From positions 577,449 to 641,448 of the forward strand of contig CP065013.1 in the NCBI GenBank assembly GCA_016700315.1: a stretch of DNA of 64,000 nucleotides, read 5' to 3'. A program made the position numbers and the translations under genes. The notes below the pieces were generated by a model, which saw nothing but the letters and a program-made list of their open reading frames with translations, was not told where the DNA came from and made no database searches. Positions 22,958-54,674 of the stretch are shown in pieces; within the stretch, counting starts at the first letter, position 1, and every line of letters begins with the position of its first letter. Origin of the DNA: Candidatus Saccharimonadota bacterium (GTDB taxonomy: Bacteria; Patescibacteriota; Saccharimonadia; Saccharimonadales; SZUA-47).

Positions 22958-22995
22958 CGGGAGTGGCGCTAGTAAGGCAAGCGCGGGCGGTTTGA
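22958..22995 (+). other. 5' fragment of a tRNA-Pro paralog, broken in the anticodon loop
   Basis: CGGGAGTGGCGC..GCGCGGGCGGTTTGA aligns with positions 1 to about 35 of the intact tRNA-Pro at 23175. It has its own upstream TATAAT at 22937-22942. Confidence 0.7.
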
Positions 22996-23150
22996 GTGAG
23001 AAGTGCCAGTGGCTCCGCCAGCTGGCGGATTGCAAGGCCGGAAACAGATTTTGAACCTGTTCAAAGTATGTTGAAGCGGGGCCGAGGCATGGCTGGCCAT
23101 AGGCTACCGTGATCGTGATCGTGGTCGTAAAGTCGCAAGTCGTGTAACGA
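22996..23150 (+). ncRNA. GTGAGAA-type tRNA-linked structured element, copy E1 (long subtype)
   Basis: Motifs in order: GTGAGAAGTGCCAGTGG, CTCCGCC-AGCT-GGCGGAT, GCAAGG, GGAAAC, hairpin TTGAA-CCTG-TTCAA, GTTGAAGCGGGGCCGAG. Collinear with copy E2. Confidence 0.55.
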
Positions 23151-23174
23151 ACTTTTTAGTTATAATGTATTTAT

Positions 23175-23830: not shown

Positions 23831-23949
23831 CGTCAGGCGCAACGCCGAGCCGATGATAGATACCAAGAGGCTGGCAACACGGCAGTTGGTGGACTGAGTG
23901 ACATCGAGATGCGGATTGGCCAGCTGCAGGACTTCGAGAGAGCCGGCTG

Positions 23950-24807: not shown

Positions 24808-24810
24808 TGT

Positions 24811-25284: not shown

Positions 25285-25294
25285 CGACTCTTCG

Positions 25295-26908: not shown

Positions 26909-27093
26909 TATGCGTAGCGACGGGATGCCCTCAGCCGAGCGCTCGTTCGGCTTCAGTTCGTGGTCGATGGTCTGTTGCCCGGGATCGGACGGCAGGTACG
27001 CGAATCGACTGGACTGCCGCACCGGGCACAGCTCAGCCGGTCAACGATCTATATTCGCTACGGGCACTAGGCCGTGGCTCTGGGGAATCAAAA

Positions 27094-27879
27094 ATGAAAA
27101 CCAAACTTGTTCGGCAACTGGTGACGTCTGTTGCTTCGTGGGCGACGTTGCTCGGCTTCGCCCTGGTGTTCAAAGACCCGGCAAGGTCGTTTTCAATTGG
27201 TTGGGTTCTATTGATTGCCTTGAGTGTTGCAGCCCTGTCGGTGAACCTTCTTTACGATGTTAAAGAATATCGAGCCAATCGCTCGCGGATTTTTAAAGAA
27301 GATAAGAACGATAAGTCCAAAAAAGATCGCGAAATCCAGCGCTACATGATTGCCTGGATCAAGTCGGGTGGAAGAACAACGATTCTTACGCGTGACATGT
27401 CCTGGCTAAACGAAGAGGCGCGAGATGAGCTAACCAAAAAGGCCAAGACTGGAGATTTGACCATCCTTGCCCAGGAGCCTGGTGAGGGGGACATACAGGA
27501 GCTTGCGAGACAGGGTGCCCAGGTATACTATTATGGTATGAAAGGCTTTGTTCCTCAGTCGCGGTTCACGATAATCAACGATTCCAAGTTGGGTGCGTGT
27601 GTTTTGATCGGACGTCCAGACAACCAGAACCACGTGATCGAAAAGTACTCAGATCCGATGTCGCCCGTCATTTCGCTGGCAAAGGACCTCGCCGGGTATG
27701 TCAAGAAGTCGCAGAAAAAGCCAAAGAAGAAGTCTCTGCGGCTTACTAAAGATAGCGGGTCAACGGGAGATGTTCGACACGTGAGTGGCAACGGGATGCC
27801 GGAGCCGCTCGATAGCGCCGCCTGTGAAGCATCCGAGCTAACTCAACCCACCTCCGACACCCCAGCGAGCGAACAATGA
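27094..27879 (+). CDS. Two-TM membrane protein with a cytoplasmic domain of unknown function
   Basis: 261 aa. Two N-terminal TM helices, a K-rich linker and a globular domain (IAWIKSGGRTTILTRDMSWL...SRFTIIND...GACVLIG). The layout is reminiscent of a PLD-like fold, but the HxK motif is absent. Locally lower GC. Confidence 0.55.
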   Translation: MKTKLVRQLVTSVASWATLLGFALVFKDPARSFSIGWVLLIALSVAALSVNLLYDVKEYRANRSRIFKEDKNDKSKKDREIQRYMIAWIKSGGRTTILTRDMSWLNEEARDELTKKAKTGDLTILAQEPGEGDIQELARQGAQVYYYGMKGFVPQSRFTIINDSKLGACVLIGRPDNQNHVIEKYSDPMSPVISLAKDLAGYVKKSQKKPKKKSLRLTKDSGSTGDVRHVSGNGMPEPLDSAACEASELTQPTSDTPASEQ

Positions 27880-28667
27880 TCGACCTGGCGGGTGATACAC
27901 GACCTATACGTATGCGGCCGGTTCGGCCTCCCACGCGAGCCGAAGTCTGCGCTCGTTGGGACCTTATTGCCGAGGAACGTGACGGTCAGATCAGAAGTGG
28001 CGTAGATATCAGTATGCGACACGTGATTATCCCTGGGGTCGTTGGGTTGATAAGGAGCGCCCAGCTGGGGAGGCAGACCCGGGTACTCGATGTGGGTTGC
28101 GGGAGCGGTTACTTGACCGAACGTCTCGCTCGGAGGTTTGACACAGTGCTTGGAATAGACCCGTCAGCGCTGTCGATCGAGCTGGCACGTGCTCAACCTA
28201 CGAGAGCGAGCTATATTCAGAGATGGGTTGAGGAAATGTCCGATGACCAACAGTTTGATCTGGTCGTGGCTAATATGGTTTTCATGGATACCCCAGACCT
28301 GGAGTCTACTGTTTCTGCTATTGATCGGTTGGTTGTTCCAGGCGGAACCGTAGTGATCAGCGTCCTGCATCCATGCCATTGGCCATATTACTGGGGCTAC
28401 GCCTATGAAGATTGGTTCGAATACCCAAAGGAAGTTGCCATCGAAGCCACTTTCAGAATTACGAAGGCCATTAGTGAAGTGGAGACCTTTCATTTCCATC
28501 GCCCATTGGAAAGATATTCGGACGTTCTATGCAATCGGGGATTCCTCATAGAAAGATTCGTTGAGCTAATGCCTTCGGCCAAAGTTGCACGGCAATACGG
28601 TACGACTCCGGCTCGCTTTCCTCGATTTCTCGCGGTTCTGGCAAGCAAACCTGAATTACGCGACTGA
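27876..28667 (+). CDS. Class I SAM-dependent methyltransferase
   Basis: 263 aa with motif I VLDVGCGSGYL. ATGA overlap with the upstream gene. Confidence 0.8.
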   Translation: MIDLAGDTRPIRMRPVRPPTRAEVCARWDLIAEERDGQIRSGVDISMRHVIIPGVVGLIRSAQLGRQTRVLDVGCGSGYLTERLARRFDTVLGIDPSALSIELARAQPTRASYIQRWVEEMSDDQQFDLVVANMVFMDTPDLESTVSAIDRLVVPGGTVVISVLHPCHWPYYWGYAYEDWFEYPKEVAIEATFRITKAISEVETFHFHRPLERYSDVLCNRGFLIERFVELMPSAKVARQYGTTPARFPRFLAVLASKPELRD

Positions 28668-29230
28668 CAGAGGCAATTCTGTCCGGGTCGAAGCTGATCA
28701 GTGGTGGCAGATTTGGTCGATGGAGCGTTGCGGGTATGCATGCGCTCGGCGTGGGGGCGGTCCGGACCCCTTTGCCGCCGCCAGGCGCATGCTGGGCCCC
28801 CCCATGGAACAACTTCACACGCATTTCCACGCCGGGCCGTAGAAACCGGGGCGAACGCCGGTTCTCATCTCGGCTCGTCTCTTCGCTGAGGGTTGAGCGG
28901 TGACGCCGACCAGGTTCTCGACCTGTTCGGCATAGAGCACGAGCCCGCAATCGGGCACAGTCCCGTGGTAGCGACGTTCAACCCCGTGGGCTTGCACGAT
29001 CGCAGACATGCGGTCACGGCTGATGCCTACGGAAGCGGCCGTCATCGGAACTTTGGAGGGACTTCGGATTTCACGGTGGAGTGAGCGTGCCGAGCAGGGC
29101 CCAGTTGGGGCGTCCGGCGTAGAGCAGTGACCGGATGCGGTAGTGCTCGAAGTTCCGGATCCCGAATGCGGCTCTACGCGGCCAACGCTGGGTTGCGGCC
29201 TCTGATTCTGTAGGTGGGGACGGTAGTCCA

Positions 29231-29515
29231 TTAGCCCCACAACGTGATGTCTTCGAAGAACGACTTGAGCGCCGACACGGTCCCGTGCTGGCGGGCGATC
29301 GACACCGGTCGCCCGTGGGCGCGTCGTCCTCGTGATGGTCGGGTGTGGTTCCAGGCCAGGAACTCCTCGATCATCTGCCGGTCGAGCTGGTCGAGGCCGG
29401 CGGTGTTGGGGTGGTGGTCGTGGAGCCACATGGCGAACAGCTCGAAGCTGTCGCAGCGGTCCTCGATCGTGGATGGTCGCAGCGTGGTCGAGCAGGCTTG
29501 GAGGTAGCGGTTCAT
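29231..29515 (-). pseudogene. N-terminal SAM-like domain fragment of a tyrosine recombinase
   Basis: MNRYLQACSTTLRPSTIEDRCDSFELFAMWL...IEEFLAWN...VSALKSFFEDITLWG matches phage-integrase N-terminal SAM-like domains. A stop follows WG, and no catalytic domain is recognisable downstream. Confidence 0.5.
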
Positions 29516-29545
29516 TGAACGTGACCCGGAATCCTGGACACGGGG

Positions 29546-30436
29546 TTATGCCAGATTCGGTTGTCCGTGGTCGTGGCGCCATTGGTCAGCGTACTCGGCT
29601 GGGGTGAGGTGGCCGAGGCCGGTCTGGTGGCGTTGCCGGTTGTAGAACACCTCGATGAACTCGAACAAGTAGGCGTGACACTCGGCGCGGGTCGGGAACC
29701 AGATGCTGCCGCGGATCCAGGCGATCTCGACCTTGAGCCTGGCCCAGGCGGTCTCCATCGCGGCGTTGTCGAACGCGTCGCCGGTCGACCCGAACGAGAG
29801 CTGCATGTCGGCGTTCCCGGCAGCGAACGCGAAGTCGAGCGACGTGTACTGCGACCCCTTGTCCGAGTGATGGATCACGTCGCCCGGGTGGCCGGTGCGG
29901 GCCAACGCCATCGTCAACGCCGACACCACGAGAGCGGCGTCCTGGCGGCCGGCGGTGTCCCAGCCGACGATCCCACGATGGAACAGATCCCGGATCCCAG
30001 CGAGATACAGCTTGCCCTCACCGGTCGGGAACTCGGTGATGTCCGCGACCCACCGCTGGTTCGGGGCGACCGCACGGAAGTCGCGGCTCAACAGGTCCGG
30101 GACACCACCGGCATCAGGGCGCCCACGCCGCCACTTCTTGCTGGCGTGTGCGCCGACCAGGCCGTTTGCGCGCATCAACCGGGCGACATGGGACCGGGCG
30201 ACCCGATGCCCGCGGCGTTGCAACTGCCCGAGCATCCGCGGCACCCCATAGGTCTTGCGTGACCGGGCATAGATGTCACGGATCGTCACGAGCAGCGCCT
30301 CGTCGGTGATGTCGCGAGCTGACGGCTTGCGGGTCAGCCACGCGTAGAACGACGAGCGTGGGATCTCGGCGAGTTCACACATCCGCTTGACCGGCAGCTC
30401 GGTCATGTTGTCCTGGACGAAGCGGAAGCGGATCAC
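29546..30436 (-). CDS. IS3-family transposase OrfB (DDE integrase core)
   Basis: 296 aa. WVADITEF...HHSDKGSQYTS...DNAAMETAW contains the DDE/rve motifs. Confidence 0.92.
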   Translation of the reverse strand: MIRFRFVQDNMTELPVKRMCELAEIPRSSFYAWLTRKPSARDITDEALLVTIRDIYARSRKTYGVPRMLGQLQRRGHRVARSHVARLMRANGLVGAHASKKWRRGRPDAGGVPDLLSRDFRAVAPNQRWVADITEFPTGEGKLYLAGIRDLFHRGIVGWDTAGRQDAALVVSALTMALARTGHPGDVIHHSDKGSQYTSLDFAFAAGNADMQLSFGSTGDAFDNAAMETAWARLKVEIAWIRGSIWFPTRAECHAYLFEFIEVFYNRQRHQTGLGHLTPAEYADQWRHDHGQPNLA

Positions 30437-30729
30437 CTCATCGTCTCTCGGGCAAAATATGCGGCCGCCCGACGCAGGATCTCGGTGTCGGTCTCCAACT
30501 CGATCACCTGCCGACGCAACCGGCGCAACTCGTCACGCTCGGACTCCGTCAACTCGTCCGGATCAGCCGCCCGCTGCGTCGCGTCACGGGCCTGCTTGAC
30601 CCAGTTCCACAACGTCCCCTCGCTGATCCCCAACGAACGCGCCACCTCCGCGATCGGGCGCCCCGAGTTCTTCACCAACTCGAGCGCGTCCCGACGAAAC
30701 TTCTCCGGATACTTGCTTGGACGCCCCAT
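30433..30729 (-). CDS. IS3-family transposase OrfA (HTH)
   Basis: 98 aa. KYPEKFRRDALELV..GRPIAEVARSLGISEGTLWNWVKQ plus a leucine-zipper-like tail. Confidence 0.9.
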   Translation of the reverse strand: MGRPSKYPEKFRRDALELVKNSGRPIAEVARSLGISEGTLWNWVKQARDATQRAADPDELTESERDELRRLRRQVIELETDTEILRRAAAYFARETMR

Positions 30730-30797
30730 GACGGGCTCCTTCCTACACGGTCTCCCGCGTAATCAGGTGTCCAAGAAACCGGGTCACGTTCACATCA

Positions 30798-31148
30798 CTA
30801 GAGCGATTCGGGTTGCGGCACCCGGGCGAGCTGGTCGGCGAGGCTGCGATGCCGGGTGTTGGGGTGTGGCGGCTGGTCGTCGAGCAGACCGAGCTGGAAG
30901 CACACCTGCTGCAACGCTCGCAGTCGTCCGTGGAGGACGCGGCGATGGTTCGTGGTCACTGTCGTTGACGCGTCAAGCGCCGTGGTCGTCGACGCGAACA
31001 CCGCGGCGTCGACGTCGTCGAGTCGACGGTTGCTGGTCAAGCAGACGAACGCGAGGCCGATCACACAGACCTGGTCGATCCAGCTGTCGCCCCAACCGAG
31101 CTGGCGGCCGACCAGCAGCGCGCACATGCGCCTAGGATCCGTTTCCAA
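30798..31148 (-). CDS. Hypothetical ORF upstream of the recombinase fragment (uncertain in GC-rich DNA)
   Basis: 116-aa ORF whose stop lies 2 nt before the ATG (30795-30793) that the IS target duplication copies. No motif recognised. Confidence 0.25.
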   Translation of the reverse strand: METDPRRMCALLVGRQLGWGDSWIDQVCVIGLAFVCLTSNRRLDDVDAAVFASTTTALDASTTVTTNHRRVLHGRLRALQQVCFQLGLLDDQPPHPNTRHRSLADQLARVPQPESL

Positions 31149-31301
31149 GCAGGGGCTCCTCGAGACTCAACGACTTCGAACACCGCTGAGAATCACAGAG
31201 CCCCTGTATCGCGTCGCGGATCACCTACGCGGCGATCAACCCACCCTCAGATCCGAAGCGCCACTTTGGAACCTCACCGAGTCAGGCGCTCGCCACCTCC
31301 C

Positions 31302-32378
31302 TCACGCATCGCCGCCCAGCGGCACACTCCCGTCGGCGAACGCCTCGAGCGTCAACGTAGGATCCGACAGAGCGCCCAACGTCGCCCAGCGTTCCCTGGT
31401 GAAGTCCATCACCGTCTGAGCCTGAGGCGGGTTCAGTTCGCTGAGATCGCCACCAAGCTCTGCCAGCACCGTCCACGTGGTGGGCGGAAGGTCGAAGAAG
31501 GACAGGTAAGCGTCATAGGTCTTGGCGCGCTCCTCACGAGCTGAGGCAGCGAACATCGCGACGTACTGTTCTCTGGTCAGGAACCTGAACTCACAACGCT
31601 CCACCACCTCGTGGAACACCCGGCTACCGGGTTGTGAGTCACCAGTCTGAGGATCCTCAAACTGTTGCGTGAACCGGACGGCGGCAGCCACATTGCCGAT
31701 GTATTTCTCCGGCGTCGAGAACTGCTCGACCACTGGAACAGCGGTTGTGACGCCTGTGTCACCCGGCGCTACAGACGTCGTTGTCGACACCGACTCCGTG
31801 GTCGCCTCACCGTCTCGGTTCTTGAAGTCAGGGAAGAGCACCGACCCCTCCACCCACTTCAACGGCTCATCTTGCAAACAGAATCGACCCTCGCTGACCG
31901 CGGCATTCGCATCGATACGCTCCCACAACCGCTTCGATACGTCCTCGAGCGACAACGTCGAACTCGTCACGGCCTTGGTGGATTTAGTTGTGCCGCCTCC
32001 GTTGTTACTTCCGCCGCCGTTATTGCCGCCATTGTTACCACCGCCATTACCACCGCCTTGTGGCTTAGTGGTTGTGGTGCGAGGTGGCTTTACCTTTGTT
32101 GTGGAAGGGTTGTTGACAATACTGGTTTCCGTACAAATACCATTATCGTCCCAATTCACGCAGACACTCCCAGCAGGTCTCATACCCTCTACCTGAACCG
32201 GTGCGGCTTCTACAGCTTTGGGCTCGCTAGCTACTTTTGCTCCAGTTACCAATGCTACGCCTGCAAGTACAGCGCCAACTTTAGCCCCAAAACCTCTTTT
32301 TTCTTTTGTCTTAGCCATAGGCATAGCACCCATCTCTGGGGATCGTGATAATTCGTTGCTTCTGTTGCTTGCACTCAT
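31302..32378 (-). CDS. Secreted or anchored hypothetical protein with a G/N-rich linker
   Basis: 358-aa ORF. The likely start is MAKTKEKRGFGAKVGAVLAGVALV, at about 32318. Contains a GGGNGGGNNGGNNGGGSNNGGG low-complexity tract. Confidence 0.5.
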   Translation of the reverse strand: MSASNRSNELSRSPEMGAMPMAKTKEKRGFGAKVGAVLAGVALVTGAKVASEPKAVEAAPVQVEGMRPAGSVCVNWDDNGICTETSIVNNPSTTKVKPPRTTTTKPQGGGNGGGNNGGNNGGGSNNGGGTTKSTKAVTSSTLSLEDVSKRLWERIDANAAVSEGRFCLQDEPLKWVEGSVLFPDFKNRDGEATTESVSTTTSVAPGDTGVTTAVPVVEQFSTPEKYIGNVAAAVRFTQQFEDPQTGDSQPGSRVFHEVVERCEFRFLTREQYVAMFAASAREERAKTYDAYLSFFDLPPTTWTVLAELGGDLSELNPPQAQTVMDFTRERWATLGALSDPTLTLEAFADGSVPLGGDA

Positions 32379-32776
32379 GGCTTTCTGCTCCTTACCTGAG
32401 CCTTGGGGGTTACGCTCAGATGATTAGTTAGCTTAACTTTGGCCTAGCAGCGCTAGCGGGCATTTTTACTGTCCCGTGCTGACTGCCTGTACCGATCCGT
32501 TTTTGGCGCGTTTTAAGCGTTCGGGCTCTAAGTCCGTCCTGAGCCGCCTCAACAGGCGACTCAGGACGGCCAACCCCCCAGCACCCCCGCCCATCTCTCC
32601 GACACCCTCCATCAAAATCATCGCCTCGCGCACCACGACCCACCAGACAGAACCTCCGACCCTGCCACCCGAGGTCCACCTCAACTCTCACCACACAGCC
32701 CTCCTGCAGCCTCTGCGAGCTTCACACGGCGTCCGACAGAATCACCGATGAGAACGTAACGCATCGCAGCTGCACA

Positions 32777-33226
32777 TCAACCGCCACCAGCCTGGCCACC
32801 TGGATCGCCCACCGCCCCAGCCGACAACAGGGCTTCTCTCGCCCGCTTGCGAGCCCGGATCAGGGTCGTACGACCCATTCCCAGCACAGTTGCAGTCGCC
32901 GTCACGTTCAACCCCGCCGCCGACAGCTCGGCAGCGCGCCGCATGTCCACCACCAACGACTGGTGATACCGGCGATCGACACCGCGCCCCGCCAGGATCT
33001 TCGAGACGGTCCCCCGATTGATCCCGAATCGCCTCGACAACTCATCAATCGTCGCCCCCGACACGTACGCCTCGGCAAGACGATCCCTGTCCGAACCAGA
33101 CAGAGCAGCTCGAACCCGGGCAGGAACCACCACGCGCTCGACCTCATCCGTCTCATCCCGCAACGGTAACCCAACCAGCCGCTGAACGAGTTGCCCCCGG
33201 TACCCGAAGTTTGAGTAACGGCGCAT
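32777..33226 (-). CDS. Helix-turn-helix DNA-binding protein (two HTH units) abutting the right island end
   Basis: ATIDELSRRFGINRGTVSKIL and NVTATATVLGMGRTTLIRARKRA. ATG at 33226 is preferred over the track's TTG at 33238. Confidence 0.55.
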   Translation of the reverse strand: MRRYSNFGYRGQLVQRLVGLPLRDETDEVERVVVPARVRAALSGSDRDRLAEAYVSGATIDELSRRFGINRGTVSKILAGRGVDRRYHQSLVVDMRRAAELSAAGLNVTATATVLGMGRTTLIRARKRAREALLSAGAVGDPGGQAGGG

Positions 33227-33228
33227 CA

Positions 33229-33237
33229 CCCCGACCA
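33229..33237 (+). repeat. Right direct repeat (attR core) CCCCGACCA
   Basis: Identical to 23243-23251. Confidence 0.7.
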
Positions 33238-33276
33238 ACTAATGAATCCAGCATTCTTGCTGGGTTTTTTAGTTGG
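33238..33276 (+). terminator. Displaced native tRNA-Pro terminator
   Basis: CCAACTAA..CCAGCA-TTCT-TGCTGG-GTTTTTT-AGTTGG. It has the same architecture (CCA, A-rich arm, hairpin, T-rich arm, TGG) as the terminators after tRNA-Arg, tRNA-Lys and tRNA-Arg at 42714, 50694 and 53409. Confidence 0.7.
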
Positions 33277-33467
33277 TTATGAATAACTCGAATCTTCGAC
33301 CGACAAGAGGTCGAAAGCCAGGATTGCCAGTTGTAGTTATAAAAATTCGAATCTTTATCAGTAAATTCAGGTTTTGCACATTAACTATCTGTTAGAGGAC
33401 AGTCATCTTTTCCCCAATAAGTTTGGTGATAGCTCACTTTGCCAAGAGATAGGCTATAATTTTATTT

Positions 33468-42048: not shown

Positions 42049-42225
42049 AAACAAAAAATGCCGACACTTGATTTCGGCATTTTGGTTTATAGCGAAGCAA
42101 GCTCTAGGGAAGCTAAAAAAACAAAACTCAATTCCGATTGAGTTTTGAGAAGGAGAAGCTGCTCAAGCGTAAACAAAAAATGCCGACACTTGATTTCGGC
42201 ATTTTGGTTTATAGCGAAGCAAGCT
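42049..42225. repeat. Duplicated 55-bp unit (42049-42103 and 42171-42225) containing a terminator hairpin, downstream of tRNA-His
   Basis: AAACAAAAAATGCCGACACTTGATTTCGGCATTTTGGTTTATAGCGAAGCAAGCT occurs twice, 122 bp apart. The spacer carries the hairpin CAAAACTCAA-TTCCGA-TTGAGTTTTG (42122-42147). Confidence 0.9.
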
Positions 42226-42307: not shown

Positions 42308-42388
42308 ACGACTATAAATACTGTGTTATTTTATCACCTACCCCTGTATTTTGCTAGCGATTTTTGCTACAATCATTTGGTGATACTC

Positions 42389-42440
42389 GCCCCGGTAGCT
42401 CAAGGGACTCGGAGCGATGGGCTTCTATCCCACAGGTCGG
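42389..42440 (+). other. 5' fragment of a tRNA-Arg(TCT) paralog, broken in the T stem
   Basis: GCCCCGGTAGCTCAAGGGACTCGGAGCGATGGGCTTCTATCCCACAGGTCGG. The anticodon arm is identical to the intact gene at 42637 but the D loop differs. TACAAT lies upstream at 42368-42373. Confidence 0.7.
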
Positions 42441-42600
42441 GTGAGAAAGTCCAGTGGATCCGCCAGCTGGCGGATCGCAAGGACGGAAACTGATTTACTG
42501 CTTGCAGTAAGTAAGTTGAGGCGGAGCCGAGACTCGGCTATATCCGCCTAAGGCGGATTACCGAGATCGTGGCGAGAATCAGATTTATGTTGGGTTTATA
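42441..42600 (+). ncRNA. GTGAGAA-type tRNA-linked structured element, copy E2 (long subtype)
   Basis: Motifs in order: GTGAGAAAGTCC-AGTG-GATCCGCC-AGCT-GGCGGATC-GCAA-GGAC, GGAAAC, hairpin TACTG-CTTG-CAGTA, GTTGAGGCGGAGCCGAG. Confidence 0.55.
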
Positions 42601-42636
42601 TAATTTGAACCCCTGTTATAATATACTTCGGTACCT

Positions 42637-42713
42637 GCCCCGGTAGCTCAGTGGATTAGAGCGATGGGCTTCTATCCCACAGGTCGGGGGTTCGAATCCC
42701 TCCCGGGGTACCA
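42637..42713 (+). tRNA. tRNA-Arg (anticodon TCT), CCA encoded
   Basis: Hand-folded: acceptor GCCCCGG/CCGGGGT, anticodon loop CTTCTAT, T arm GGGGG-TTCGAAT-CCCTC. Confidence 0.93.
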
Positions 42714-42751
42714 ATAATAATACCTCAGCTTGTCTGAGGTATTATTATTGG
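42714..42751 (+). terminator. tRNA-Arg(TCT) terminator hairpin
   Basis: AATAATAATACCTCAG-CTTGT-CTGAGGTATTATTATTGG. Confidence 0.75.
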
Positions 42752-42999
42752 TTATATTGGTGGATTAGAACGCCCGACCAAAAAGGTCGGGGTGAGAAAG
42801 TCCAGTGGATCCGCCAGCTGGCGGATCGCAAGGAAACAAACTCTTGAAAACTTGTTTTCAAAGATGTTTTTTCGGGTGAGACGATTCAGTGAATCGTCGC
42901 AAGGACTATTGTCTGATTTCAAACTTGTTTGAAGAAAGACAAAGTCGGGGTCGCTGAAAGTGACCGCCGAAGGTGAGTCGAATCCCTCCCGGGGTACCA
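42752..42999 (+). pseudogene. Composite pseudo-tRNA-Arg(TCT): degenerate 5' part, element E3 (42792-42977), then a perfect 22-nt tRNA 3' end
   Basis: GGTGGATTAGAACG..AAGGTCGGG, then GTGAGAAAGTCC...GGTCGC-TGAAA-GTGACC..GGTGAG, then TCGAATCCCTCCCGGGGTACCA. A second terminator follows at 43000-43039. Confidence 0.65.
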
Positions 43000-43150
43000 A
43001 TAAAAATACCTTAGCTTGTCTAGGGTACTTTTTTTATTGTTTATCTTAACGGATTCGAACACCGGAGCTAAAGAGTTAGATTAAAGTTTTATGTGAGATA
43101 GATTTTGACGGGTTTTGTGCTAACATTTAAGCATAAGCGAGGAGACTAAC

Positions 43151-44491
43151 GTGGACGAAAAACAAGACTTAACTGCTAAAGCAGATAATGTCCAAGCAAG
43201 TAACAGTGATAATAATGAAACTAGTAATCCGGATAACGAGATATCACAATTGGGGCAGCCTTCAACGGCAATTAGTTCAAGTGCATCATCCCCAAAGAAG
43301 TTCAACAAAAGTAAAGTTTATGTGCTGACCTTAATCGGTCTAATTGCCGTAGGGGTTGTGCTGTGGCTATTGGTTTTTAATAATCCCAAAAAAGCCGAAG
43401 CACCAGTTAGTAATGTCACGACAGACACAAATTCTGCACAGGTTACATCTAATCAGCCAGCCCAGAAGAAAATCAGTGCCGATAAAATTATCTATGCATA
43501 TTCAAACTCGGGCGCTAATGACTTGAAGATTTACAGCCGGTCCGCAGGCGGCGGTGACAAGAAGGAGCTTCTCAATTTTACCGCGGGTGAAATCATGGAG
43601 AGCTACAGCGTTCGAGGCCAGAGCATTGCCCTTGCTATTACTGGTGGTAGCCCTAAGGGACTCAAAATAATGTTTAGTTCGGACGGTGGAGTAACCTTCA
43701 AGCCGATCTATCAGAAGGCAAACTCCGAGCTACAGGTAACAAGCTTGATGCTGTCGGACGATGCTACCTCTCTTACAATGGCCTTACTCGAAACGCCAGC
43801 TTCCAAAAATAAAGTCTACGAGGTGCCTCTTGATGGTTCAGGTTCAATAAAAGAGCTATTCACAGCTGCTACAGCGGGAGTAGCGATGTATTCTTACAGC
43901 ACAAAAGCATCGTCAATTGTTTTCTCGGAAGGTTGCTGGAACTGTGATGGCTTCAACAACAAAGAAATATTTTCTTACGATATAAACGCTAAAGCCAGGA
44001 AGTCGCTATATCAATCACCAATCGGTGGCCTTTCTCTAGGAGTAACAAGTGACGGTACTGAAATGATCGTGGCTGAAGGTTCAAAATATACAGGTCCTCC
44101 ATCTGAAGGTTTAGGTGGACCGATTACTCAACCCCCTTACAAATTTATATCTGTCAATATTAAATCTGGGGATAAAAAACAAGTAGGTGAAACCAATGAC
44201 AAAGTCCAGGATGTAGCGTACATCTCTAACGTTCAACCGTATTATGTAAGTGACAAAAAAGTAGTGGAATTAGTTAGCACGCCGGTGACAAAATTTGAAG
44301 CCGATAAACAAATTTCAGAAGCTGCATACGTGTCGGACACGGAAGTAGTCGTAGCGACTGGGGTTGCCGACGCTTATGGATACATAAAAGACTATAGCTT
44401 AAGCACCTTCAAACTAACTGACAAATCAATCATCAAAGTGCTAGAAGGTGATCAGCAAACAACTATTATCGGTGTTACCTCTACAAAATAA
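43151..44491 (+). CDS. Membrane-anchored extracytoplasmic hypothetical protein
   Basis: 446 aa with a GTG start. Low-complexity N-terminus, one TM helix (VYVLTLIGLIAVGVVLWLLVF), and a beta-rich C-terminal region. Confidence 0.65.
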   Translation: MDEKQDLTAKADNVQASNSDNNETSNPDNEISQLGQPSTAISSSASSPKKFNKSKVYVLTLIGLIAVGVVLWLLVFNNPKKAEAPVSNVTTDTNSAQVTSNQPAQKKISADKIIYAYSNSGANDLKIYSRSAGGGDKKELLNFTAGEIMESYSVRGQSIALAITGGSPKGLKIMFSSDGGVTFKPIYQKANSELQVTSLMLSDDATSLTMALLETPASKNKVYEVPLDGSGSIKELFTAATAGVAMYSYSTKASSIVFSEGCWNCDGFNNKEIFSYDINAKARKSLYQSPIGGLSLGVTSDGTEMIVAEGSKYTGPPSEGLGGPITQPPYKFISVNIKSGDKKQVGETNDKVQDVAYISNVQPYYVSDKKVVELVSTPVTKFEADKQISEAAYVSDTEVVVATGVADAYGYIKDYSLSTFKLTDKSIIKVLEGDQQTTIIGVTSTK

Positions 44492-44831
44492 CAATGCAAG
44501 ACCCTACCAAATTTTGACCACTTGATTGGCAAAATTTAGGTAGGGTTGGAGTTGATTCACTGGCATTAGCCAGTGCTGCTATCTTCAAGGGGGTCCCCAA
44601 ACAATTCCGATTGTTTGGGGTAGAGGAGGAACAATGCAAGACCCTACCAAATTTTGACCACTTGATTGGCAAAATTTAGGTAGGGTTGGAGTTGATTCAC
44701 TGGCATTAGCCAGTCTGCTACAGGGGTCCCCAAACAATTCCGATTGTTTGGGGTAGAGGAGGAACAATGCAAGACCCTACCAAATTTTGACCACTTGATT
44801 GGCAAAATTTAGGTAGGGTTGGAGTTGATTC
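44490..44831. repeat. Tandem repeat of 140 + 133 + 69 (partial) bp, abutting the 3' end of tRNA-Gly
   Basis: The unit AACAATGCAAGACCCTACCAAATTTTGACCACTTGATTGGCAAAATTTAGGTAGGGTTGGAGTTGATTC... recurs at 44490, 44630 and 44763. Each full unit carries the hairpin CCCCAAACAA-TTCCGA-TTGTTTGGGG. Confidence 0.92.
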
Positions 44832-44947: not shown

Positions 44948-46477
44948 CTAGCTTATATCACTTTGAATGGTGATTCTTGCTCCCAAAGAGTTTAGTCTGG
45001 AGGCTAAATCTTCGTAACCACGATTTATGGTGTATATATTTCTAAGAGTGGATTTTCCTGGCGCTGCCAACATTCCGATCAATAGCATTACGGCTGGACG
45101 AATCCCGCTAGGACAGACAACATCACCCGCTCGCCAACGAGTTGGGCCATTGACGTAAACCCGGTGAGGATCCGCCAACTCAAGCTCGACACCAATCTTT
45201 TTGATCTCGGTAAACATTAGGGCTCGGTCTTCGTAGACCCAGTCGTGTATCAATGTGCGGCCGTTTGCCACAGCGCAAATGGGGACGAAATACGGCAAGT
45301 TGTCTATATTCAATCCTGTGCTAGGAAGCGGGTGTATTTTCTCGCCGGGCGCTTTGAGCTTGCCGCCGTGTTTATATATTTTTATATCCGCGAGATTGGT
45401 ATAGCCGTTTTCGGCTTTATAAGCGGACAAAACCTCATATTTTAGCCCCATTTTTTCAAGTTTTAGCATCTCTAATTCTAGAAAATCGATAGGTGAGCGC
45501 TTGATAGTTACCGAAGAGTCGGTGGTGATAGCTGCGGCGATGAAAGTCATGGCTTCAACAGGATCTTCGCTAGGAGAGTACGAAATGTTTTTCTTGATAT
45601 ATTTATGACCATGAACACGCAGTGTTGGTGTGCCTATTCCGTCTATGCGAACACCAAGTCTCTGTAGGAATAGGCAGGTGTCTTGCACCATGTAGTTGCT
45701 GCTGGCGAGTTTAATAACAGTTTCGCCTTCAAAAGTGGCTGCTGCAATCAGAGCGTTTTCGGTAGTAGTGTCACCCGTTTCGTAAAGAACTATGTCCCGG
45801 TTTGGTAAATGCATTTTCCCGCTGATTTGATAATGTCCGGTTTTTGCTTCGATCTTTGCGCCAAACTCCTCGAGGGCATAGATATGGGGTAGAACCGTTC
45901 TTTTACCTAGCTCACAACCGCCTGCATAAGGAATCCTAAGATTGGGGTATTCACGCATAAGCGCACCGACGAACATAATAACCGTTCGAGTCTTACGCGC
46001 TGCATTTTCGTTCATTTTGTCGAGCAGTAGTTTTTGGGGGCGGCGGATTTCTAGGTCGTTGCCGGGCAGCCATTTAATTTGTACGCCTATACTCTGCAGA
46101 ACTTCTATAATTCGGTTTACTTCCTCGATCCTAGCCACCGATTTGAGTTTGGTAACACCGTAATTGATTAGACTGGCACAGAGAATAGCTACCGCAGCGT
46201 TTTTGCTAGTTTTGACAGTTATCTCACCTTTTAGTTCGTGGCCACCTTCTATTTTGAGATTGATCGCACCGCTGGTCTCTACTTTGACGAGTGGTTTTTG
46301 AAGGACTTCACTGATGCGAGCTAACATGTCTAGAGAGAGGTTCTGCTTTCCCTTCTCGATACGATTAACCGCTGACTGGCTGGTGCCAAGTGCTTCGGCA
46401 AAAGCAGTCTGTGTCATCTCACGTTCTTGCCTTAGGTTGGTAATTAGTTGTCCGATTTTTTGGTTTGTGTCATTCAT
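44948..46477 (-). CDS. murA: XRE-type HTH domain fused to UDP-N-acetylglucosamine 1-carboxyvinyltransferase (MurA)
   Basis: 509 aa. The first 65 aa or so form an XRE HTH (MTQTAFAEALGTSQSAVNRIEKGKQN). The rest has the MurA/EPSP-synthase fold with YAGGCELGKRTV (active-site Cys loop). Confidence 0.85.
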   Translation of the reverse strand: MNDTNQKIGQLITNLRQEREMTQTAFAEALGTSQSAVNRIEKGKQNLSLDMLARISEVLQKPLVKVETSGAINLKIEGGHELKGEITVKTSKNAAVAILCASLINYGVTKLKSVARIEEVNRIIEVLQSIGVQIKWLPGNDLEIRRPQKLLLDKMNENAARKTRTVIMFVGALMREYPNLRIPYAGGCELGKRTVLPHIYALEEFGAKIEAKTGHYQISGKMHLPNRDIVLYETGDTTTENALIAAATFEGETVIKLASSNYMVQDTCLFLQRLGVRIDGIGTPTLRVHGHKYIKKNISYSPSEDPVEAMTFIAAAITTDSSVTIKRSPIDFLELEMLKLEKMGLKYEVLSAYKAENGYTNLADIKIYKHGGKLKAPGEKIHPLPSTGLNIDNLPYFVPICAVANGRTLIHDWVYEDRALMFTEIKKIGVELELADPHRVYVNGPTRWRAGDVVCPSGIRPAVMLLIGMLAAPGKSTLRNIYTINRGYEDLASRLNSLGARITIQSDIS

Positions 46478-46510
46478 AATGGGTCAATTATATCACAAAG
46501 AGTATAAAAT

Positions 46511-46599
46511 TAGTAGTTAGTAGTTAGTAGTTAGTAGTTAGTAGTTAGTAGTTAGTAGTTAGTAGTTAGTAGTTAGTAGTTAGTAGTTAGTAGTTAGTA
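46511..46599. repeat. Heptanucleotide microsatellite (TAGTAGT), about 12.7 copies
   Basis: Read directly. It starts 34 bp upstream of the HTH-murA start codon. Confidence 0.95.
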
Positions 46600-46631
46600 T
46601 CATGTATAAAGTATGAACTCGCACCTAGAGC

Positions 46632-50506: not shown

Positions 50507-50616
50507 GCGAGAGGAATCGCAAAATTAAGAGGAAACGGCTTGGCGGGGGTGCCGGAATTGTTGAGTGAACTTGTTTCGTCAACGGTTCCGGCGCAAGCGC
50601 CATCACCCGTTGACGA
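50507..50616 (+). ncRNA. Highly structured leader directly upstream of tRNA-Lys; possible divergent relative of the GTGAGAA elements
   Basis: Nested stems: GCGA-GAGGAA-TCGC, CCGGAA...TTCCGG, CGTCAACGG...CCGTTGACG and GGCG-CAAG-CGCC. It shares the GGAAAC, ACTTGTTT and CGCAAG motifs with the family. Confidence 0.35.
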
Positions 50617-50693
50617 GGGGCCATAGCTCAGTTGGTTAGAGCATCTGCCTCTTAAGCAGAGTGTCCTGGGTTCAAGTCCCAGTGGCCCCTCCA
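50617..50693 (+). tRNA. tRNA-Lys (anticodon CTT), CCA encoded
   Basis: Hand-folded: acceptor GGGGCCA/TGGCCCC, anticodon loop CTCTTAA, T arm CTGGG-TTCAAGT-CCCAG. Confidence 0.95.
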
Positions 50694-50729
50694 AATAAAA
50701 AACCCAGCATGTCTGGGTTTTTTATTTGG
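50694..50729 (+). terminator. tRNA-Lys terminator hairpin
   Basis: AATAAAAAACCCAG-CATGT-CTGGGTTTTTTATTTGG. Confidence 0.75.
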
Positions 50730-50886
50730 AGGGTCTATAAGCTTCAACCCGGGGCACCCGGTTTCAGAGTGTCATGGGTGAGAAATGCCAGTGGCATTTC
50801 GGAAACGAATCTTCCGACAAAAACTTGTTTTTTGATCGCGAAGTTCGGGGGTCGCGGAACGTGACCAAGTCCCAGTGGCCCCTCCA
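50729..50886 (+). pseudogene. Composite pseudo-tRNA-Lys: degenerate 5' part, minimal element E4 (50778-50865), then a perfect 21-nt tRNA 3' end
   Basis: GAGGGTCTATAAGC..CAGAGTGTCATGG, then GTGAGAAATGCC-AGT-GGCATTTC GGAAAC.. CAAAAA-CTTG-TTTTTTG .. GGTCGC-GGAAC-GTGAC, then CAAGTCCCAGTGGCCCCTCCA. Confidence 0.65.
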
Positions 50887-50892
50887 ACTATC

Positions 50893-51360
50893 TTAGTCTT
50901 TTGTCCAAATTTCGAAATGATAGCTGAGGCCGTTCTCGGCTTTTGGGGCTGAGCTTGATTGAAGCTTGAAAGCCTTTGGTAGCTGTGGGAAGAACTTATC
51001 ACAGCTAAAATCAGCATCGATTCTTGTGATGTATACCTCGTCTGCGTGAGGTAGCGCCAACTCGTAAATCTCTTGGCCGCCAATAACCCAGAGATCGTTA
51101 GTAAAACTATCTATAAACTTTGTCGGATCTTTGATCCAAGTAACTCCAGGTTTTGCGGGTTGAGAACGTCGAGAACAAACGTAGTTATGGCTTTCGGGCA
51201 GAGCTCGGCCGATTGCATTGTGTGTATTGTGGCCTATGATAATACTTGAACCACGGATTCTATTATGAAAATAAGCTAGTTCGTTTGGCAGGCTCCACGG
51301 CATTCGGCCGTCCTTGGCAATGCCGCTTTTACTATCAACTGCCACGATTAGTCTTATCAT
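50893..51360 (-). CDS. folA: Dihydrofolate reductase
   Basis: 155 aa. Starts MIRLIVAVDSKSGIAKDGRMPWSLPNELAYF. Confidence 0.9.
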   Translation of the reverse strand: MIRLIVAVDSKSGIAKDGRMPWSLPNELAYFHNRIRGSSIIIGHNTHNAIGRALPESHNYVCSRRSQPAKPGVTWIKDPTKFIDSFTNDLWVIGGQEIYELALPHADEVYITRIDADFSCDKFFPQLPKAFKLQSSSAPKAENGLSYHFEIWTKD

Positions 51361-53094: not shown

Positions 53095-53322
53095 AAAACA
53101 AAATTCCGATTTTGTTTTGAATAGCGACAAAACTTTATGGCTACCACTAGCGCACAAAATTCACATTTTGTACGTTTGAAAAGCCAGAAAGAATTGCAGC
53201 TAAATGTATTAGAAGCTGCTAACCCAAAACAAAATTCCGATTTTGTTTTGAATAGCGACAAAACTTTATGGCTACCACTAGCGCACAAAATTCACATTTT
53301 GTACGCTTGAAAAGCCAGAAAG
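53095..53322. repeat. Duplicated 97-bp unit (53095-53191 and 53226-53322, 1 mismatch) ending 9 nt upstream of tRNA-Arg(TCG)
   Basis: The unit contains the hairpins AAAACAAAA-TTCCGA-TTTTGTTTT and ACAAAAT-TCAC-ATTTTGT. Its reverse complement contains a D-arm-like GCGCTAGTGGTAGC. Confidence 0.9.
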
Positions 53323-53331
53323 TTTTGGAGA

Positions 53332-53408
53332 GCACCCGTAGCTCAGCGGATTAGAGCATCTGTCTTCGGAACAGAGGGTCGGCGGTTCGAATCCGTCCGG
53401 GTGTACCA
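53332..53408 (+). tRNA. tRNA-Arg (anticodon TCG), CCA encoded
   Basis: Hand-folded: acceptor GCACCCG/CGGGTGT, anticodon loop CTTCGGA, T arm GGCGG-TTCGAAT-CCGTC. Confidence 0.93.
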
Positions 53409-53446
53409 ACAAAAATTCCTCAGACTGTCTGAGGTATTTTTGTTGG
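53409..53446 (+). terminator. tRNA-Arg(TCG) terminator hairpin
   Basis: ACAAAAATTCCTCAG-ACTGT-CTGAGGTATTTTTGTTGG. Confidence 0.75.
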
Positions 53447-53550
53447 TAGTTCTGGCACAGAACCGCGAGCCGCCGTGGTCGGTTCGATAATCCCCCGTCA
53501 ACTTGTTGGCAGACGGGCGGATTATACCTAAGTAATCCGTCCGGGTGTAA
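53447..53550 (+). pseudogene. Degenerate pseudo-tRNA-Arg(TCG) with a 45-nt insertion in the T loop, flanked by a TAATCC duplication
   Basis: ...GTGGTCGGTTCGATAATCC, then CCCGTC-AACTTGTTGGCA-GACGGG..CTAAG, then TAATCCGTCCGGGTGTAACA. Confidence 0.55.
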
Positions 53551-53689
53551 CATTTCTGTACTTATACCTAACTTCCTATCCGTTTGTTTTGTTCATAATA
53601 GGTTAACTCCACAGAGCACCTTCTACGAGATTTGCACTTTCATCGTGCTATTGCTTGCATTGTGCCAACTGTATTGAAATAATAATTCC

Positions 53690-54259
53690 ATGCTTAGAAG
53701 TCTCGACATATCATCTTACCCCGCAACTCAAGAATTGCTACATGAGAGAGGTAGGCAAGATATTCTCGAAACCCTTGATCGATTTAACGAACAACTTGGC
53801 GAATTCTCTGAAGAGTTTGTTGTCATTGGAGGTGCTAACTTGGTTCTGCGTGGAATCAAAAGAACCACTGTTGATGTAGATATACTGGTCTCAGATGGAG
53901 TTTTCTACACAATGTCACAAATAGAAGGTGCGAAGATTAAATACCCTCCAAAAAGGGCAATTAACAATGGAGCAACCAACACTTCAGTATGGATCAATAC
54001 TGACTGGACGAAGATTCCAATAAGCGGAGCTACTGAAATGGGTGACGGATACTATCCTATTTCATATGCTATGTATGATGATGTAGACCTGGAGCTTTTT
54101 GGAGGCCATGCAGTAGCACCGCTAGACGATGTTTGGAAATCTAAAGTAGCATTGCAACGACCTAAAGATTTACCTGATTTGTATGTCATTGCAAAGCATA
54201 CTGGAAGGAGTATGCTCCTGCCTGCTCCCGTATATACTGGCCCGTTTCTAGATAGTTAA
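53690..54259 (+). CDS. Putative minimal nucleotidyltransferase-fold protein
   Basis: 189 aa. VVIGGANLVLRGIKRTTVDVDILV resembles the GS/GG...DxD motif of Pol-beta-type nucleotidyltransferases. It lies between repeated tRNA-Arg 3' ends. Confidence 0.45.
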   Translation: MLRSLDISSYPATQELLHERGRQDILETLDRFNEQLGEFSEEFVVIGGANLVLRGIKRTTVDVDILVSDGVFYTMSQIEGAKIKYPPKRAINNGATNTSVWINTDWTKIPISGATEMGDGYYPISYAMYDDVDLELFGGHAVAPLDDVWKSKVALQRPKDLPDLYVIAKHTGRSMLLPAPVYTGPFLDS

Positions 54260-54299
54260 CTGATTTTACTAGCAATTTTTTTCTAAGCTCGATAAGGAT

Positions 54300-54345
54300 G
54301 CTGTACCAACAAAAATACCTCAGACTGTCTGAGGTATTTTCGTGG
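54300..54345 (+). other. Orphan tRNA-Arg 3' tip (GCTGTACCA) plus a copy of the tRNA-Arg terminator
   Basis: GTACCAACAAAAATACCTCAGACTGTCTGAGGTATTTTCGTGG is near-identical to 53403-53446. Confidence 0.7.
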
Positions 54346-54587
54346 CTGTGATCGGCGGATTCGAATTGTCGGCCACTCAAAAGAGGGTCGGTGTGAGAAC
54401 TGCCTGTGGCAGTCCGGAAACGAATCTTCTCTTGCAAACTTGTTTGCAAAGATGAATTTTCGGGTGAGACGATTCAGTGAATCGTCGCAAGGACTATTGT
54501 CTGATTTCAAACTTGTTTGAAGAAAGACAAAGTCGGGGTCGCTGAAAGTGACCGCCGAAGGTGAGTCGAATCCGTCCGGCCGTACCA
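54346..54587 (+). pseudogene. Composite pseudo-tRNA-Arg(TCG): degenerate 5' part, element E5 (54393-54565), then a tRNA 3' end (2 mismatches)
   Basis: ..GGCGGATTCGA..AGAGGGTCGGT, then GTGAGAACTGCC-TGT-GGCAGTCC GGAAAC ... GGTGAG, then TCGAATCCGTCCGGCCGTACCA. The 3' 117 nt (54457-54573) are identical to 42869-42985. Confidence 0.65.
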
Positions 54588-54674
54588 AAAAAAGTTGTCA
54601 TTAGTTGTAGATACTTGTGAATATTAAACAACCTCCTGGTTTGGAGGCTGTTTAGTTTGATCTTAGAGCTTTGA

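Follow-up and report, generated by a model that had tools for sequence, protein, structure and literature searches.

Why are 117 nucleotides perfectly identical at two tRNA-Arg loci whose flanking sequences are not? The question arises in a 64,000-nt stretch of the Candidatus Saccharimonadota contig CP065013.1 (hereafter the window), where one copy of the block lies downstream of tRNA-Arg(TCT) (42869..42985, + strand) and the other downstream of tRNA-Arg(TCG) (54457..54573, + strand, offset +11588).

Identity and bounds of the 117-nt block

An exact comparison of the two loci showed that 42869-42985 and 54457-54573 agree base for base over 117 nt, as the original prediction had it, and that the identity extends by 0 nt further to the left and by 0 nt further to the right. 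The two copies are part of a wider pair of repeats (42841-43005 and 54429-54593) with 95% identity over 165 nt, and no 25-mer of the block occurs in the rest of the window. The block had been described as running 8 nt into a common T-loop, and indeed its final 8 nt, TCGAATCC, are the T-loop remainder common to both tRNA-Arg genes. The 5′ parts of the two elements and the tRNA 3′ ends that follow them were also correctly described as different: past the block the acceptor 3′ strands read CTCCCGGGGTACCA and GTCCGGCCGTACCA, respectively, and upstream of it the first modules of the two elements, described below, are not alike. The claimed position relative to the tRNA genes stood in part. The second copy is downstream of tRNA-Arg(TCG) but does not directly adjoin it, as it lies about 1 kb off, behind a small insert and a 189-aa gene. 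The open reading frames at 42752..43000 and 54283..54588 had been judged spurious, in agreement with our search of 5.8 billion proteins, in which the 101-aa translation of 54283-54588 (- strand) matched only two other 'proteins', both lying over copies of the same element, one beside tRNA-Gln in another organism (L102) and one in a variant of the same locus (L103).

Perfect identity can also be an artefact of assembly or polishing, and 117 nt, a length that long reads span but the k-mers of short-read assemblers do not, makes collapse conceivable in principle. We checked this against contigs from other sequencing runs. The Logan contigs L099 and L100 carry the junction of the block with its TCT context and start 30 and 16 nt, respectively, ahead of the first TCT-specific base (window 42986), where the 30-nt distance equals k-1 for an assumed Logan k of 31. 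The left or right part of the block in its TCG context is found on L202, L203 and L103, and the tail of L203 ends on the last shared base. The starts of L099 and L100 and the end of L203 are as expected of a true repeat. A look-up of the adjacent 446-aa protein returned only contigs of about 1.5 kb, broken at the repeat. Since the block in its two contexts is reproduced in five other runs (SRR26222414, SRR34260825, DRR736404, SRR30183946 and SRR24750951), assembly collapse is very unlikely, and we consider an artefact extremely improbable.

A structured element inside broken tRNA copies

The block makes up the distal half of a structured element, here in a two-module copy, that has not been catalogued before and that we call E. 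The core of E, 87-91 nt long (about 90), reads 5′-TGAGAA...GTGAC-3′ and forms three helices. An 8-bp hairpin with an NGU triloop (hp1) is followed by GGAAA; a bulged 8-bp helix then encloses a variable hairpin, capped mostly by CUUG, and is followed by GG; the third helix (hp3) is a 7-bp hairpin, GGUCGCN-GAA-N'GUGACC, with a GAA triloop and an invariant G.U pair, which identifies the + strand as the one that folds. In an alignment of 19 E sequences 97.1% of the cells were paired and 17 of the 33 pairs had compensatory changes, while slid controls reached 27-43% pairing and none of 500 shuffles reached the observed values. With 47 distinct sequences, in an alignment itself fitted to the model, pairing was 95.4% and compensatory changes appeared at 32 of 33 pairs. 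Across the E alignments the slid controls gave 27-47% pairing, compared with 95-97% observed. Whole elements also fold much better than their shuffles (z from -5.4 to -5.7). There are two subtypes, CGGAAACGAAYCUUC and CGCAAGGACUAUUG, whose middle helices differ through compensatory changes.

The elements that contain the block are composites, in which a first module lacking hp3 is followed by a full module of the second subtype, hp3 and a half-repeat of hp3, so that two tandem 73-nt modules precede a terminal hairpin. The first copy of the block comprises the final 7 nt of module 1, all of module 2 (42876-42948), hp3 (42949-42965), the hp3 half-repeat (42966-42977) and the first 8 nt of the tRNA 3′ fragment; the second has the same anatomy. 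The first modules at the two Arg loci belong to different subtypes, and one of them includes a 16-nt palindrome insert that the other lacks. The suggestion of a modular element, with a variable 5′ hairpin and a conserved 3′ module, was borne out by the finding of the two-module build in other organisms, beside tRNA-Gln (L102) and flanking tRNA-Val on either side (L136), and by the occurrence of one- and two-module TCG copies across samples. As for the variable 5′ hairpin, its 3′ strand consists of variable-loop and T-stem sequence of the tRNA. A hairpin of this kind is found just upstream of many copies of E that lie downstream of a tRNA gene; its 3′ strand is the variable loop and 5′ T-stem strand of the tRNA itself, to which the 5′ strand is adapted in each case.

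We scanned metagenomes with a 21-base pattern taken from the terminal hairpin, and of the 93 stretches obtained 80 were examined. Fifty-three of these loci were false, 52 being a high-GC coding gene with the same 23-mer and one a chance match (L126). True copies are present on at least 27 metagenome contigs (39-48% GC; groundwater, soil and freshwater) and on one contig of an ENA assembly. A covariance model, R1, recovered 52 copies in the window and 36 loci, 51 of which were tabulated. At Rfam 15 gathering thresholds only tRNAs passed in the window and seven loci, with no family for E; in the permissive E-value mode (42350-43080, 22900-23260 and 50600-50900) the matches over E were far below the gathering thresholds. 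Neither of the two E core patterns was present in two specific scans of IMG/VR viral contigs, a looser motif scan of viral contigs gave 81 matches that were all due to chance, and blastn of a full 247-nt copy against phage and plasmid records returned no match. Our literature search yielded no description of such an element, although absence there is not proof of absence. E is a previously uncatalogued, strongly covarying family that is widespread in uncultured relatives.

The association of E with tRNA genes is tight. Of the 51 R1 copies, 35 are no more than 300 nt from a tRNA gene, a zone that takes up only 12% of the bases; 32 of these 35 are on the strand of the tRNA and three are antisense to it. 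In the window, on the 27 metagenome contigs and on the ENA contig, E is located inside a partial tRNA copy next to an intact gene; the exception is L181, where the target is a hairpin other than a tRNA and GG was replaced. The interrupted copy is always partial, and at least 14 tRNA species are represented among such broken copies in many uncultured bacteria. When 21 copies of E were checked by machine, the 9 nt on either side mapped to the neighbouring tRNA in 17, with exactly 2 nt absent between the two flanks. The site replaced most often is TT 54-55 of the T-loop (tRNA-Lys, Met, Ala, Leu and Arg, and, by eye, Ser); others are positions 25-26 (tRNA-Lys, Phe and Gly), a D-loop dinucleotide (tRNA-Glu) and, on the antisense strand, variable-loop nucleotides (tRNA-Phe, L149). 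The sites share the motif RG^NN^Y, and the junctions of E show 1-2 nt of microhomology. Two arrangements recur. In the downstream form an intact tRNA gene and its terminator are followed by a region of about 40 nt, E, and a tRNA 3′ fragment that runs from C56 to CCA, and in most such copies 68-91 nt separate the tRNA from E. In the upstream form a tRNA 5′ fragment, E and 10-28 nt more of the tRNA precede unrelated sequence with a -10 box and then the intact gene.

Within the window, the GTGAGA plus hairpin motif of E occurs seven times (0.23 expected), in all cases on the + strand beside + strand tRNAs: Pro, Arg-TCT (three), Lys and Arg-TCG (two). The simplest member is at tRNA-Lys(CTT) (50617..50890, +), where the tRNA (50617-50693) and its terminator are followed by an X region, a one-module E (50777-50866; 102.7 bits) replacing T54-T55, and a 3′ fragment (50867-50890). 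At tRNA-Pro, a broken 5′ copy (22958..23174, +) that reaches into the anticodon loop precedes a variant E (GTGAGA at 22996), a -10 box and then the intact gene (23175-23251, +). The tRNA-Arg(TCT) locus has both forms. Its intact gene (42637..42713, +; terminator hairpin 42709-42752) is followed by a broken copy with a two-module E (42753..42999, +), composed of a D-loop-like remnant, hairpin X:X' (CCCGACC 42773-42779, GGTCGGG 42785-42791; +), module 1 with the palindrome insert (42792-42875, +), module 2 with its hp3, and a 3′ fragment of the tRNA (42978-42999), behind which the terminator recurs in degenerate form (43000-43040, +). On the other side, an upstream broken copy (42389..42636, +) contains tRNA positions 1 to about 51 (42389-42440) and a variant E (GTGAGA at 42441; 26 bits), and ends with an extended -10 box, TGTTATAAT, right before the intact gene. 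With both forms present, the outer tRNA appears to be split by a unit of E, promoter, intact tRNA, terminator and E; L136 and L201 are nested in a similar way. All seven copies in the window lie on the G-rich strand, but a replication-strand bias found no clear support across loci, where only 18 of 28 had positive skew on the strand of E and the antisense copy of L149 had negative skew.

Comparisons with relatives allowed us to follow E at corresponding loci. At tRNA-Lys(CTT), the window, L165 and L127 are 80-87% identical in E and 89-95% in the tRNA; the spacer is 54-65% identical, compared with about 47% for random sequence, a level to which the identity falls further out. L165 retains part of the window's local gene order (SHMT 71% and EPSP synthase 62% identical). 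As to other gene content, we noted the type IV pilus proteins PilB and PilC, RNase Y and a lamin-tail-domain protein, and a sortase in relatives, which together would point to a Patescibacteria/Saccharibacteria-like organism; for a neighbouring DUF817 protein, reference genomes provided distant matches only, of at most 51% identity, in Devosia and Arthrobacter. A comparison of presence and absence had been proposed as a check, and it did reveal a difference: a relative represented by L197/L198, whose DUF6036 protein is 71% identical, carries E at tRNA-Arg(TCG) and none at tRNA-Arg(TCT), which indicates that the presence of E varies among relatives.

The TCG-side unit and its nucleotidyltransferase gene

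The region that contains the second copy of the block has a more elaborate build. The intact tRNA-Arg(TCG) gene (53332..53408, +; terminator 53404-53448) is followed by a T-loop insert of a second kind, the A-type insert (53449..53552, +), inside a tRNA-Arg(TCG) 3′ remnant that ends AATCCGTCCGGGTGTAACA, the 3′ fragment closing with AACA. A homologue of this insert lies beside tRNA-Trp in L204. Next come the gene for a 189-aa DUF6036 protein (53690..54259, +), GCTGTACCA with a copy of the terminator (54300-54345), and the broken tRNA-Arg copy with the two-module E (54345..54587, +), in which an X region (54345-54392) precedes module 1 (54393-54463), module 2 (54464-54536) and hp3 (54537-54553). 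The region ends with a 3′ fragment (54566-54587, +) that comes from another tRNA-Arg allele, its acceptor strand, CGGCCGT, being unlike that of the neighbouring gene; the acceptor-like pairing GTGGCTG/CGGCCGT of this copy is fully complementary.

Segments of the tRNA 3′ end form direct repeats at 42695-42713 and 42981-42999 and at 53390, 53534 and 54569, and they bound units of 193, 286, 144 and 1,035 nt in the window. The largest (53534..54568, +) has AATCCGTCCGG as direct repeats at its bounds and encodes the DUF6036 protein only, with no integrase or recombinase. In the 193-, 286- and 144-nt units there were no open reading frames of at least 80 aa other than spurious antisense frames over the element. 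On L103, L202 and L203, which come from three other runs, the 3′ end of E is joined through TCGAATCCGTCCGG to GTGTAACATTTCTG, the start of the gene unit in the window, and L203 closes on itself with a 19-nt overlap of its ends. These junctions indicate that this unit, about 960-1,035 nt long, exists either in circular form or as a tandem repeat, and the contigs fit both states equally. The TCG copy has two modules in L202, as in the window, and one in the samples of the same species represented by L103 and L203, where the single module is a hybrid in which 73 nt have been deleted between repeats of AAACTTGTTTG.

The encoded cargo protein belongs to Pfam DUF6036, with invariant G47, G48, D62 and D64 (the GG...DxD nucleotidyltransferase motif), and had a weak PADLOC match to AbiEii (E=0.004). 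Its AF2 model, which is confident (pLDDT 86.9), matched JHP933 and TM1012 best, and also MenT1 (probability 0.98, TM 0.50), all of these structural matches being weak (TM 0.44-0.55). From motif and model, the protein is predicted to have a minimal nucleotidyltransferase fold with the GG...DxD motif, similar to MenT and AbiEii. Homologues are encoded directly after tRNA genes or tRNA 3′ fragments on five other contigs (tRNA-Arg, Tyr and Trp), and many DUF6036 homologues are on contigs of about 1 kb. MenT toxins modify tRNA 3′ ends, and by analogy a functional link between the cargo and the adjacent RNA that bears a tRNA 3′ end is conceivable.

Origin of the identity and nature of the element

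The original prediction offered recent mobility or gene conversion as the source of the perfect identity, and the 117 identical bases with mismatched flanks and first modules of different subtype agree with it. A recent homologous exchange between the two Arg loci, by gene conversion or unequal crossing-over, is in our judgement very probably what made the blocks identical. The left limit of the identical tract is 7 nt inside module 1, and its right limit is the point at which tRNA-specific sequence sets in; the module 1 stretch beside the tract is homologous, with about 24 of 28 positions matching. These limits, inside module 1 and at the last shared T-loop base, favour conversion or crossing-over over a precise transposition of the unit. 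Since the first modules and the tRNA tails differ, the two loci are not fresh insertions of one element, and the polymorphism in module number demonstrates that recombination of this sort does occur in E. The homologous hairpin of the first module would have provided the left anchor of the exchange, and the T-loop bases common to both tRNAs the right one.

What E itself is can be answered with less confidence. Our best explanation, to which we give about an even chance, is that the block is the distal half of E and was recently exchanged, that the repeat-bounded units recombine, and that E is self-propagating with its fold under selection. The units between the tRNA 3′-end repeats would be small integrated units that lack an enzyme of their own and recombine through these repeats. 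E would be placed in exposed loops of tRNA sequence by an activity acting in trans, and a lineage with the insert would persist only where an intact copy of the tRNA exists, which would explain why each E is found beside one; selection would keep the fold intact. A self-propagating insert is favoured by the range of tRNA species and sites that carry E, in either orientation, by fixed ends at which precisely 2 nt are replaced, and by the gain or loss of E among relatives. Across 30 loci no recurring protein (recombinase, reverse transcriptase or other) was found near E, and we know of no recombination chemistry that swaps 2 nt without target duplication. Apart from the block and another near-identical stretch of 53 nt at 94%, the copies within the genome share short, partly similar stretches, unlike a recently active repeat. 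A bolder version, which we find doubtful, takes E for a folded RNA or single-stranded DNA that is written into exposed tRNA loops in place of 2 nt, a mobile entity with no protein gene that reads tRNA architecture and not a DNA word, and that persists because each insertion is locked beside the one functional gene for an essential tRNA; in a variant of it, E and the RNA with the tRNA 3′ end would act as partner or decoy of the MenT-like nucleotidyltransferase on a circularising 1-kb unit.

The near-equal conservation of E and the tRNA at the Lys(CTT) locus suggests selection in place, hence a possible host function, and it speaks for such a function no less than for a selfish element. E might accordingly be a structured RNA of the host that uses the leftover tRNA pieces as scaffold or cis partners, such as a mimic of the tRNA end or a processing or regulatory element co-transcribed with the tRNA; at the TCG unit it might serve the adjacent MenT/AbiEii-like enzyme as an RNA partner or decoy, and the identity of the blocks would reflect concerted evolution of two functional copies. 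We hold this as a tentative possibility. It would account for flanks that are randomised while E persists, also at the tRNA-Lys(CTT) of a relative with part of the local gene order, for the sense orientation of 32 of 35 copies, the stereotyped spacing in most downstream copies, the upstream hairpin adapted to each tRNA, the folding of whole elements relative to shuffles and the fully complementary acceptor-like pairing of the TCG copy, and the fold of the cargo and the position of its homologues right behind tRNAs or their 3′ fragments agree with it. Most downstream copies, however, lie behind a strong terminator and have no consistent promoter, the adjacent tRNA fragments can be decayed or come from another tRNA (L148, L122, L141 and L136), three copies are antisense, the nucleotidyltransferase is absent near most copies, and the exact replacement of 2 nt at six kinds of site is left unexplained.

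That replacement, at loop positions commonly modified in tRNAs, would be natural if the broken copies were retro-copies: a reverse transcriptase working on a mature tRNA or tRNA half would switch template to E RNA and back, skipping 2 nt, and the chimeric cDNA would recombine beside the parent gene. Such a route also fits the fixed ends of E, the motif and microhomology at the junctions, the strong sense bias, and outer ends that coincide with those of the mature tRNA (+1 in L146 and L160, CCA in most downstream copies). Still, we think it unlikely. Retro-pseudogenes ought to decay, yet E is conserved; the duplication reaches the terminator at two loci (window TCT and L130); L149 and L110 are antisense; and no reverse transcriptase was found near any locus or in the part of the window that was covered. 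We give slightly less credit again to the idea that the units are remnants of integrase-mediated islands at tRNA genes, with E as the arm region beside attP and the identity due to the same element having inserted twice. The direct repeats of the T-loop-to-CCA segment around the units, the end-to-end junction of the 1-kb unit and an unrelated high-GC island at tRNA-Pro are what islands of this kind would leave. Against them, the units measure 144-1,035 nt and lack an integrase, the stems covary freely, which is the mark of a folded single strand and not of protein half-sites, and the first modules of the two loci differ, so that one element did not insert twice. Nor do T-loop integrases yield the upstream copies with 5′ fragments, the insertions of E at positions 25-26 or in D-loops, or the one in a hairpin that is not a tRNA.

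E and its units share features with several described systems. Tyrosine-integrase islands and cis-mobilisable mini-elements reportedly occupy tRNA genes, with a T-loop sublocation class (the account is that of Williams from 2002). As in that class, an intact tRNA is followed by an element and a direct repeat from T-loop to CCA, several units can be nested or in tandem at one tRNA, and an end-to-end junction is detectable. Unlike these islands, the units here are short and integrase-free, their boundary element is a covarying fold, 2 nt of the tRNA are replaced, and arrangements with 5′ fragments or outside the T-loop also occur. In Caldiarchaeum subterraneum, archaeal tRNA genes are modelled as disrupted by an integrating mobile element (PMC3293823). 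There, too, inserted DNA separates a full tRNA gene from a fragment of the same tRNA, and natural populations are heterogeneous, but the insert is 1.8 kb long, encodes a recombinase and yields introns or split tRNAs (PMC3293823), whereas E is a 90-nt insert without a protein, in a copy that is unusable as a tRNA. Likewise, group I introns in patescibacterial tRNA genes are structured RNAs interrupting tRNA sequence in small-genome and probably related bacteria; they are 200+ nt long and self-splicing, and the gene whose anticodon loop they occupy is the only functional one (PMC13011429). E, in contrast, lacks one exon half, deletes 2 nt and always has an intact gene alongside.

E resembles REP-type palindromic elements and REPINs (PMC3116915), IS200/IS605-derived elements and small cyanobacterial repeats in being short, without a protein gene, reliant on hairpins, active through a single strand and long-lived. 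It differs from the REP/REPIN and IS200/IS605-derived elements in that we saw no conserved 4-5-nt target and no RAYT or TnpA, in its strict tie to tRNA sequence, in its three helices and in the divergence of copies within a genome. Very small dispersed repeats of cyanobacteria are said to land in hairpins of RNA genes, an observation attributed to Elhai et al. in 2008. Theta ribozymes, which are HDV-like and sit 3′ of phage tRNAs, share with tmRNA, YrlA and E a compact conserved fold that is physically tied to tRNA or tRNA-like sequence. Unlike them, E matches no such Rfam model and does not abut the intact tRNA, and unlike theta ribozymes its core patterns are absent from viral contigs and its full copy from phage records.

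Several other identities were considered and dropped. A tRNA-like RNA such as tmRNA or YrlA does not fit, as the T-loop is interrupted and ARAGORN and Rfam gave no qualifying match: ARAGORN reported no tmRNA in the window, and YrlA and permuted-tmRNA matches of 11-15 bits were off E and far below threshold. A split or permuted tRNA is excluded by joined fragments that are short by 2-3 nt, and a group I intron by the lack of any RF00028 match over E in the Rfam scans, by a tRNA half that is missing or degenerate, and by the 2 absent nucleotides. A hammerhead core is contradicted by covariation, which pairs the base that would have to be its G8, and the loop geometry is unfit for a k-turn; group II domain V and an integron attC were also set aside. 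A serine-recombinase crossover is contradicted by unequal dinucleotides at the two junctions. MITEs duplicate their target, whereas here 2 nt are replaced, and the GGTGAGA and GTGACC ends share at most an imperfect 6-nt inverted match. For an IS200/IS605-type element or REP, the 5′ flanks are too different (CCCAG, CTAGC, TAGAT, TTAGA and others), having in common only R-G before E and Y after it.

In practical terms, E accounts for spurious ORF calls and for contig breaks beside tRNA genes in these genomes, and the covariance model R1 can be used to annotate it. tRNA genes are classic landing pads of mobile DNA, whose known users are kilobase-sized and bring their own integrase, and the precise 2-nt replacement that is the signature of E is explained by no described mechanism. 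Should E prove mobile, it would define a mode of targeting structured RNA genes, and of resisting loss, that is new; as a functional RNA it would form a widespread uncatalogued RNA class at the tRNA loci of small-genome bacteria.

Inserts in E modules, broken tRNA copies and a non-tRNA hairpin

Three modules of E, the ~90-nt folded element found inside partial tRNA gene copies, carry in the window a separate tiny insert, the 16-nt palindrome TCCGCCAGCTGGCGGA, which includes a PvuII site (positions 23014-23029, 42459-42474 and 42810-42825). In another organism, a broken tRNA-Val copy bears the same palindrome in its D-loop (metagenome contig L136, 1779-1794). The palindrome appears to be a mini-insert in its own right, landing in the loops of E and broken-tRNA structures. 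E itself was also found in a hairpin that is not a tRNA, CCTCTAGTGGGGGTGGGCACCGCTAGAGG, for which there was no Rfam match. In this case (metagenome contig L181, 3150-3490) E replaces the GG of the hairpin loop, and here too an intact copy of the target lies downstream of the partial one, with a second E between them.

Repeats and a high-GC island at tRNA genes

Tandem repeats of 131-140 nt adjoin tRNA-Gly (three copies, 44450-44831) and tRNA-Arg(TCG) (two copies, 53095-53330), and a related single copy adjoins tRNA-His (42104-42148). Each repeat contains a hairpin of type CCCCAAACAATTCCGATTGTTTGGGG, always with the loop TTCCGA on the + strand, and the units on the tRNA-Gly side additionally contain GGAGGAACAATG followed by a 6-codon frame. 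At tRNA-His, encoded on the minus strand, a 55-nt block with the terminator of the gene is exactly duplicated, 122 nt apart (42049-42225).

Immediately after tRNA-Pro begins a high-GC island (23252-33400; GC 52-64% vs ~44% elsewhere), which encodes a YwqJ-like deaminase (23950-24807), an rve-type transposase (29546-30436) and a methyltransferase. At the other end of the island, no repeat of the tRNA-Pro 3′ segment was detected.

Elsewhere in the window, an EPSP-synthase-family protein (44948-46477) has an N-terminal Cro/C1-type helix-turn-helix domain, an unusual fusion that is kept in a partly syntenic relative (L165, 62% identity). A microsatellite of ~13 repeats of the 7-nt unit TTAGTAG (46510-46600) separates this gene from the SHMT gene.

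The A-type insert, the DUF6036 gene and the tRNA-Arg fragment

A second kind of T-loop insert, A-type, is a structured sequence of ~75 nt with two hairpins, unrelated to E. A tRNA 3′ remnant carries it inside its T-loop; it adjoins tRNA-Arg(TCG) in the window (53449-53552) and tRNA-Trp in another organism (L204, 300-452), and in both cases a DUF6036 gene is located just downstream (53690-54259 in the window). The protein encoded by the DUF6036 gene of the window belongs to the minimal nucleotidyltransferases, and its fold weakly resembles those of the JHP933, TM1012 and MenT1/AbiEii families. Homologues of it are directly preceded by tRNA genes, and many are found on ~1 kb contigs. In the TCG unit, which joins this gene to a two-module E, the broken tRNA-Arg copy has a fully complementary acceptor-like pair, GTGGCTG/CGGCCGT (54345-54351 with 54575-54581), which differs from GCACCCG/CGGGTGT of the neighbouring gene by compensatory changes. 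Hence either the fragment comes from another tRNA-Arg allele or its pairing is maintained.
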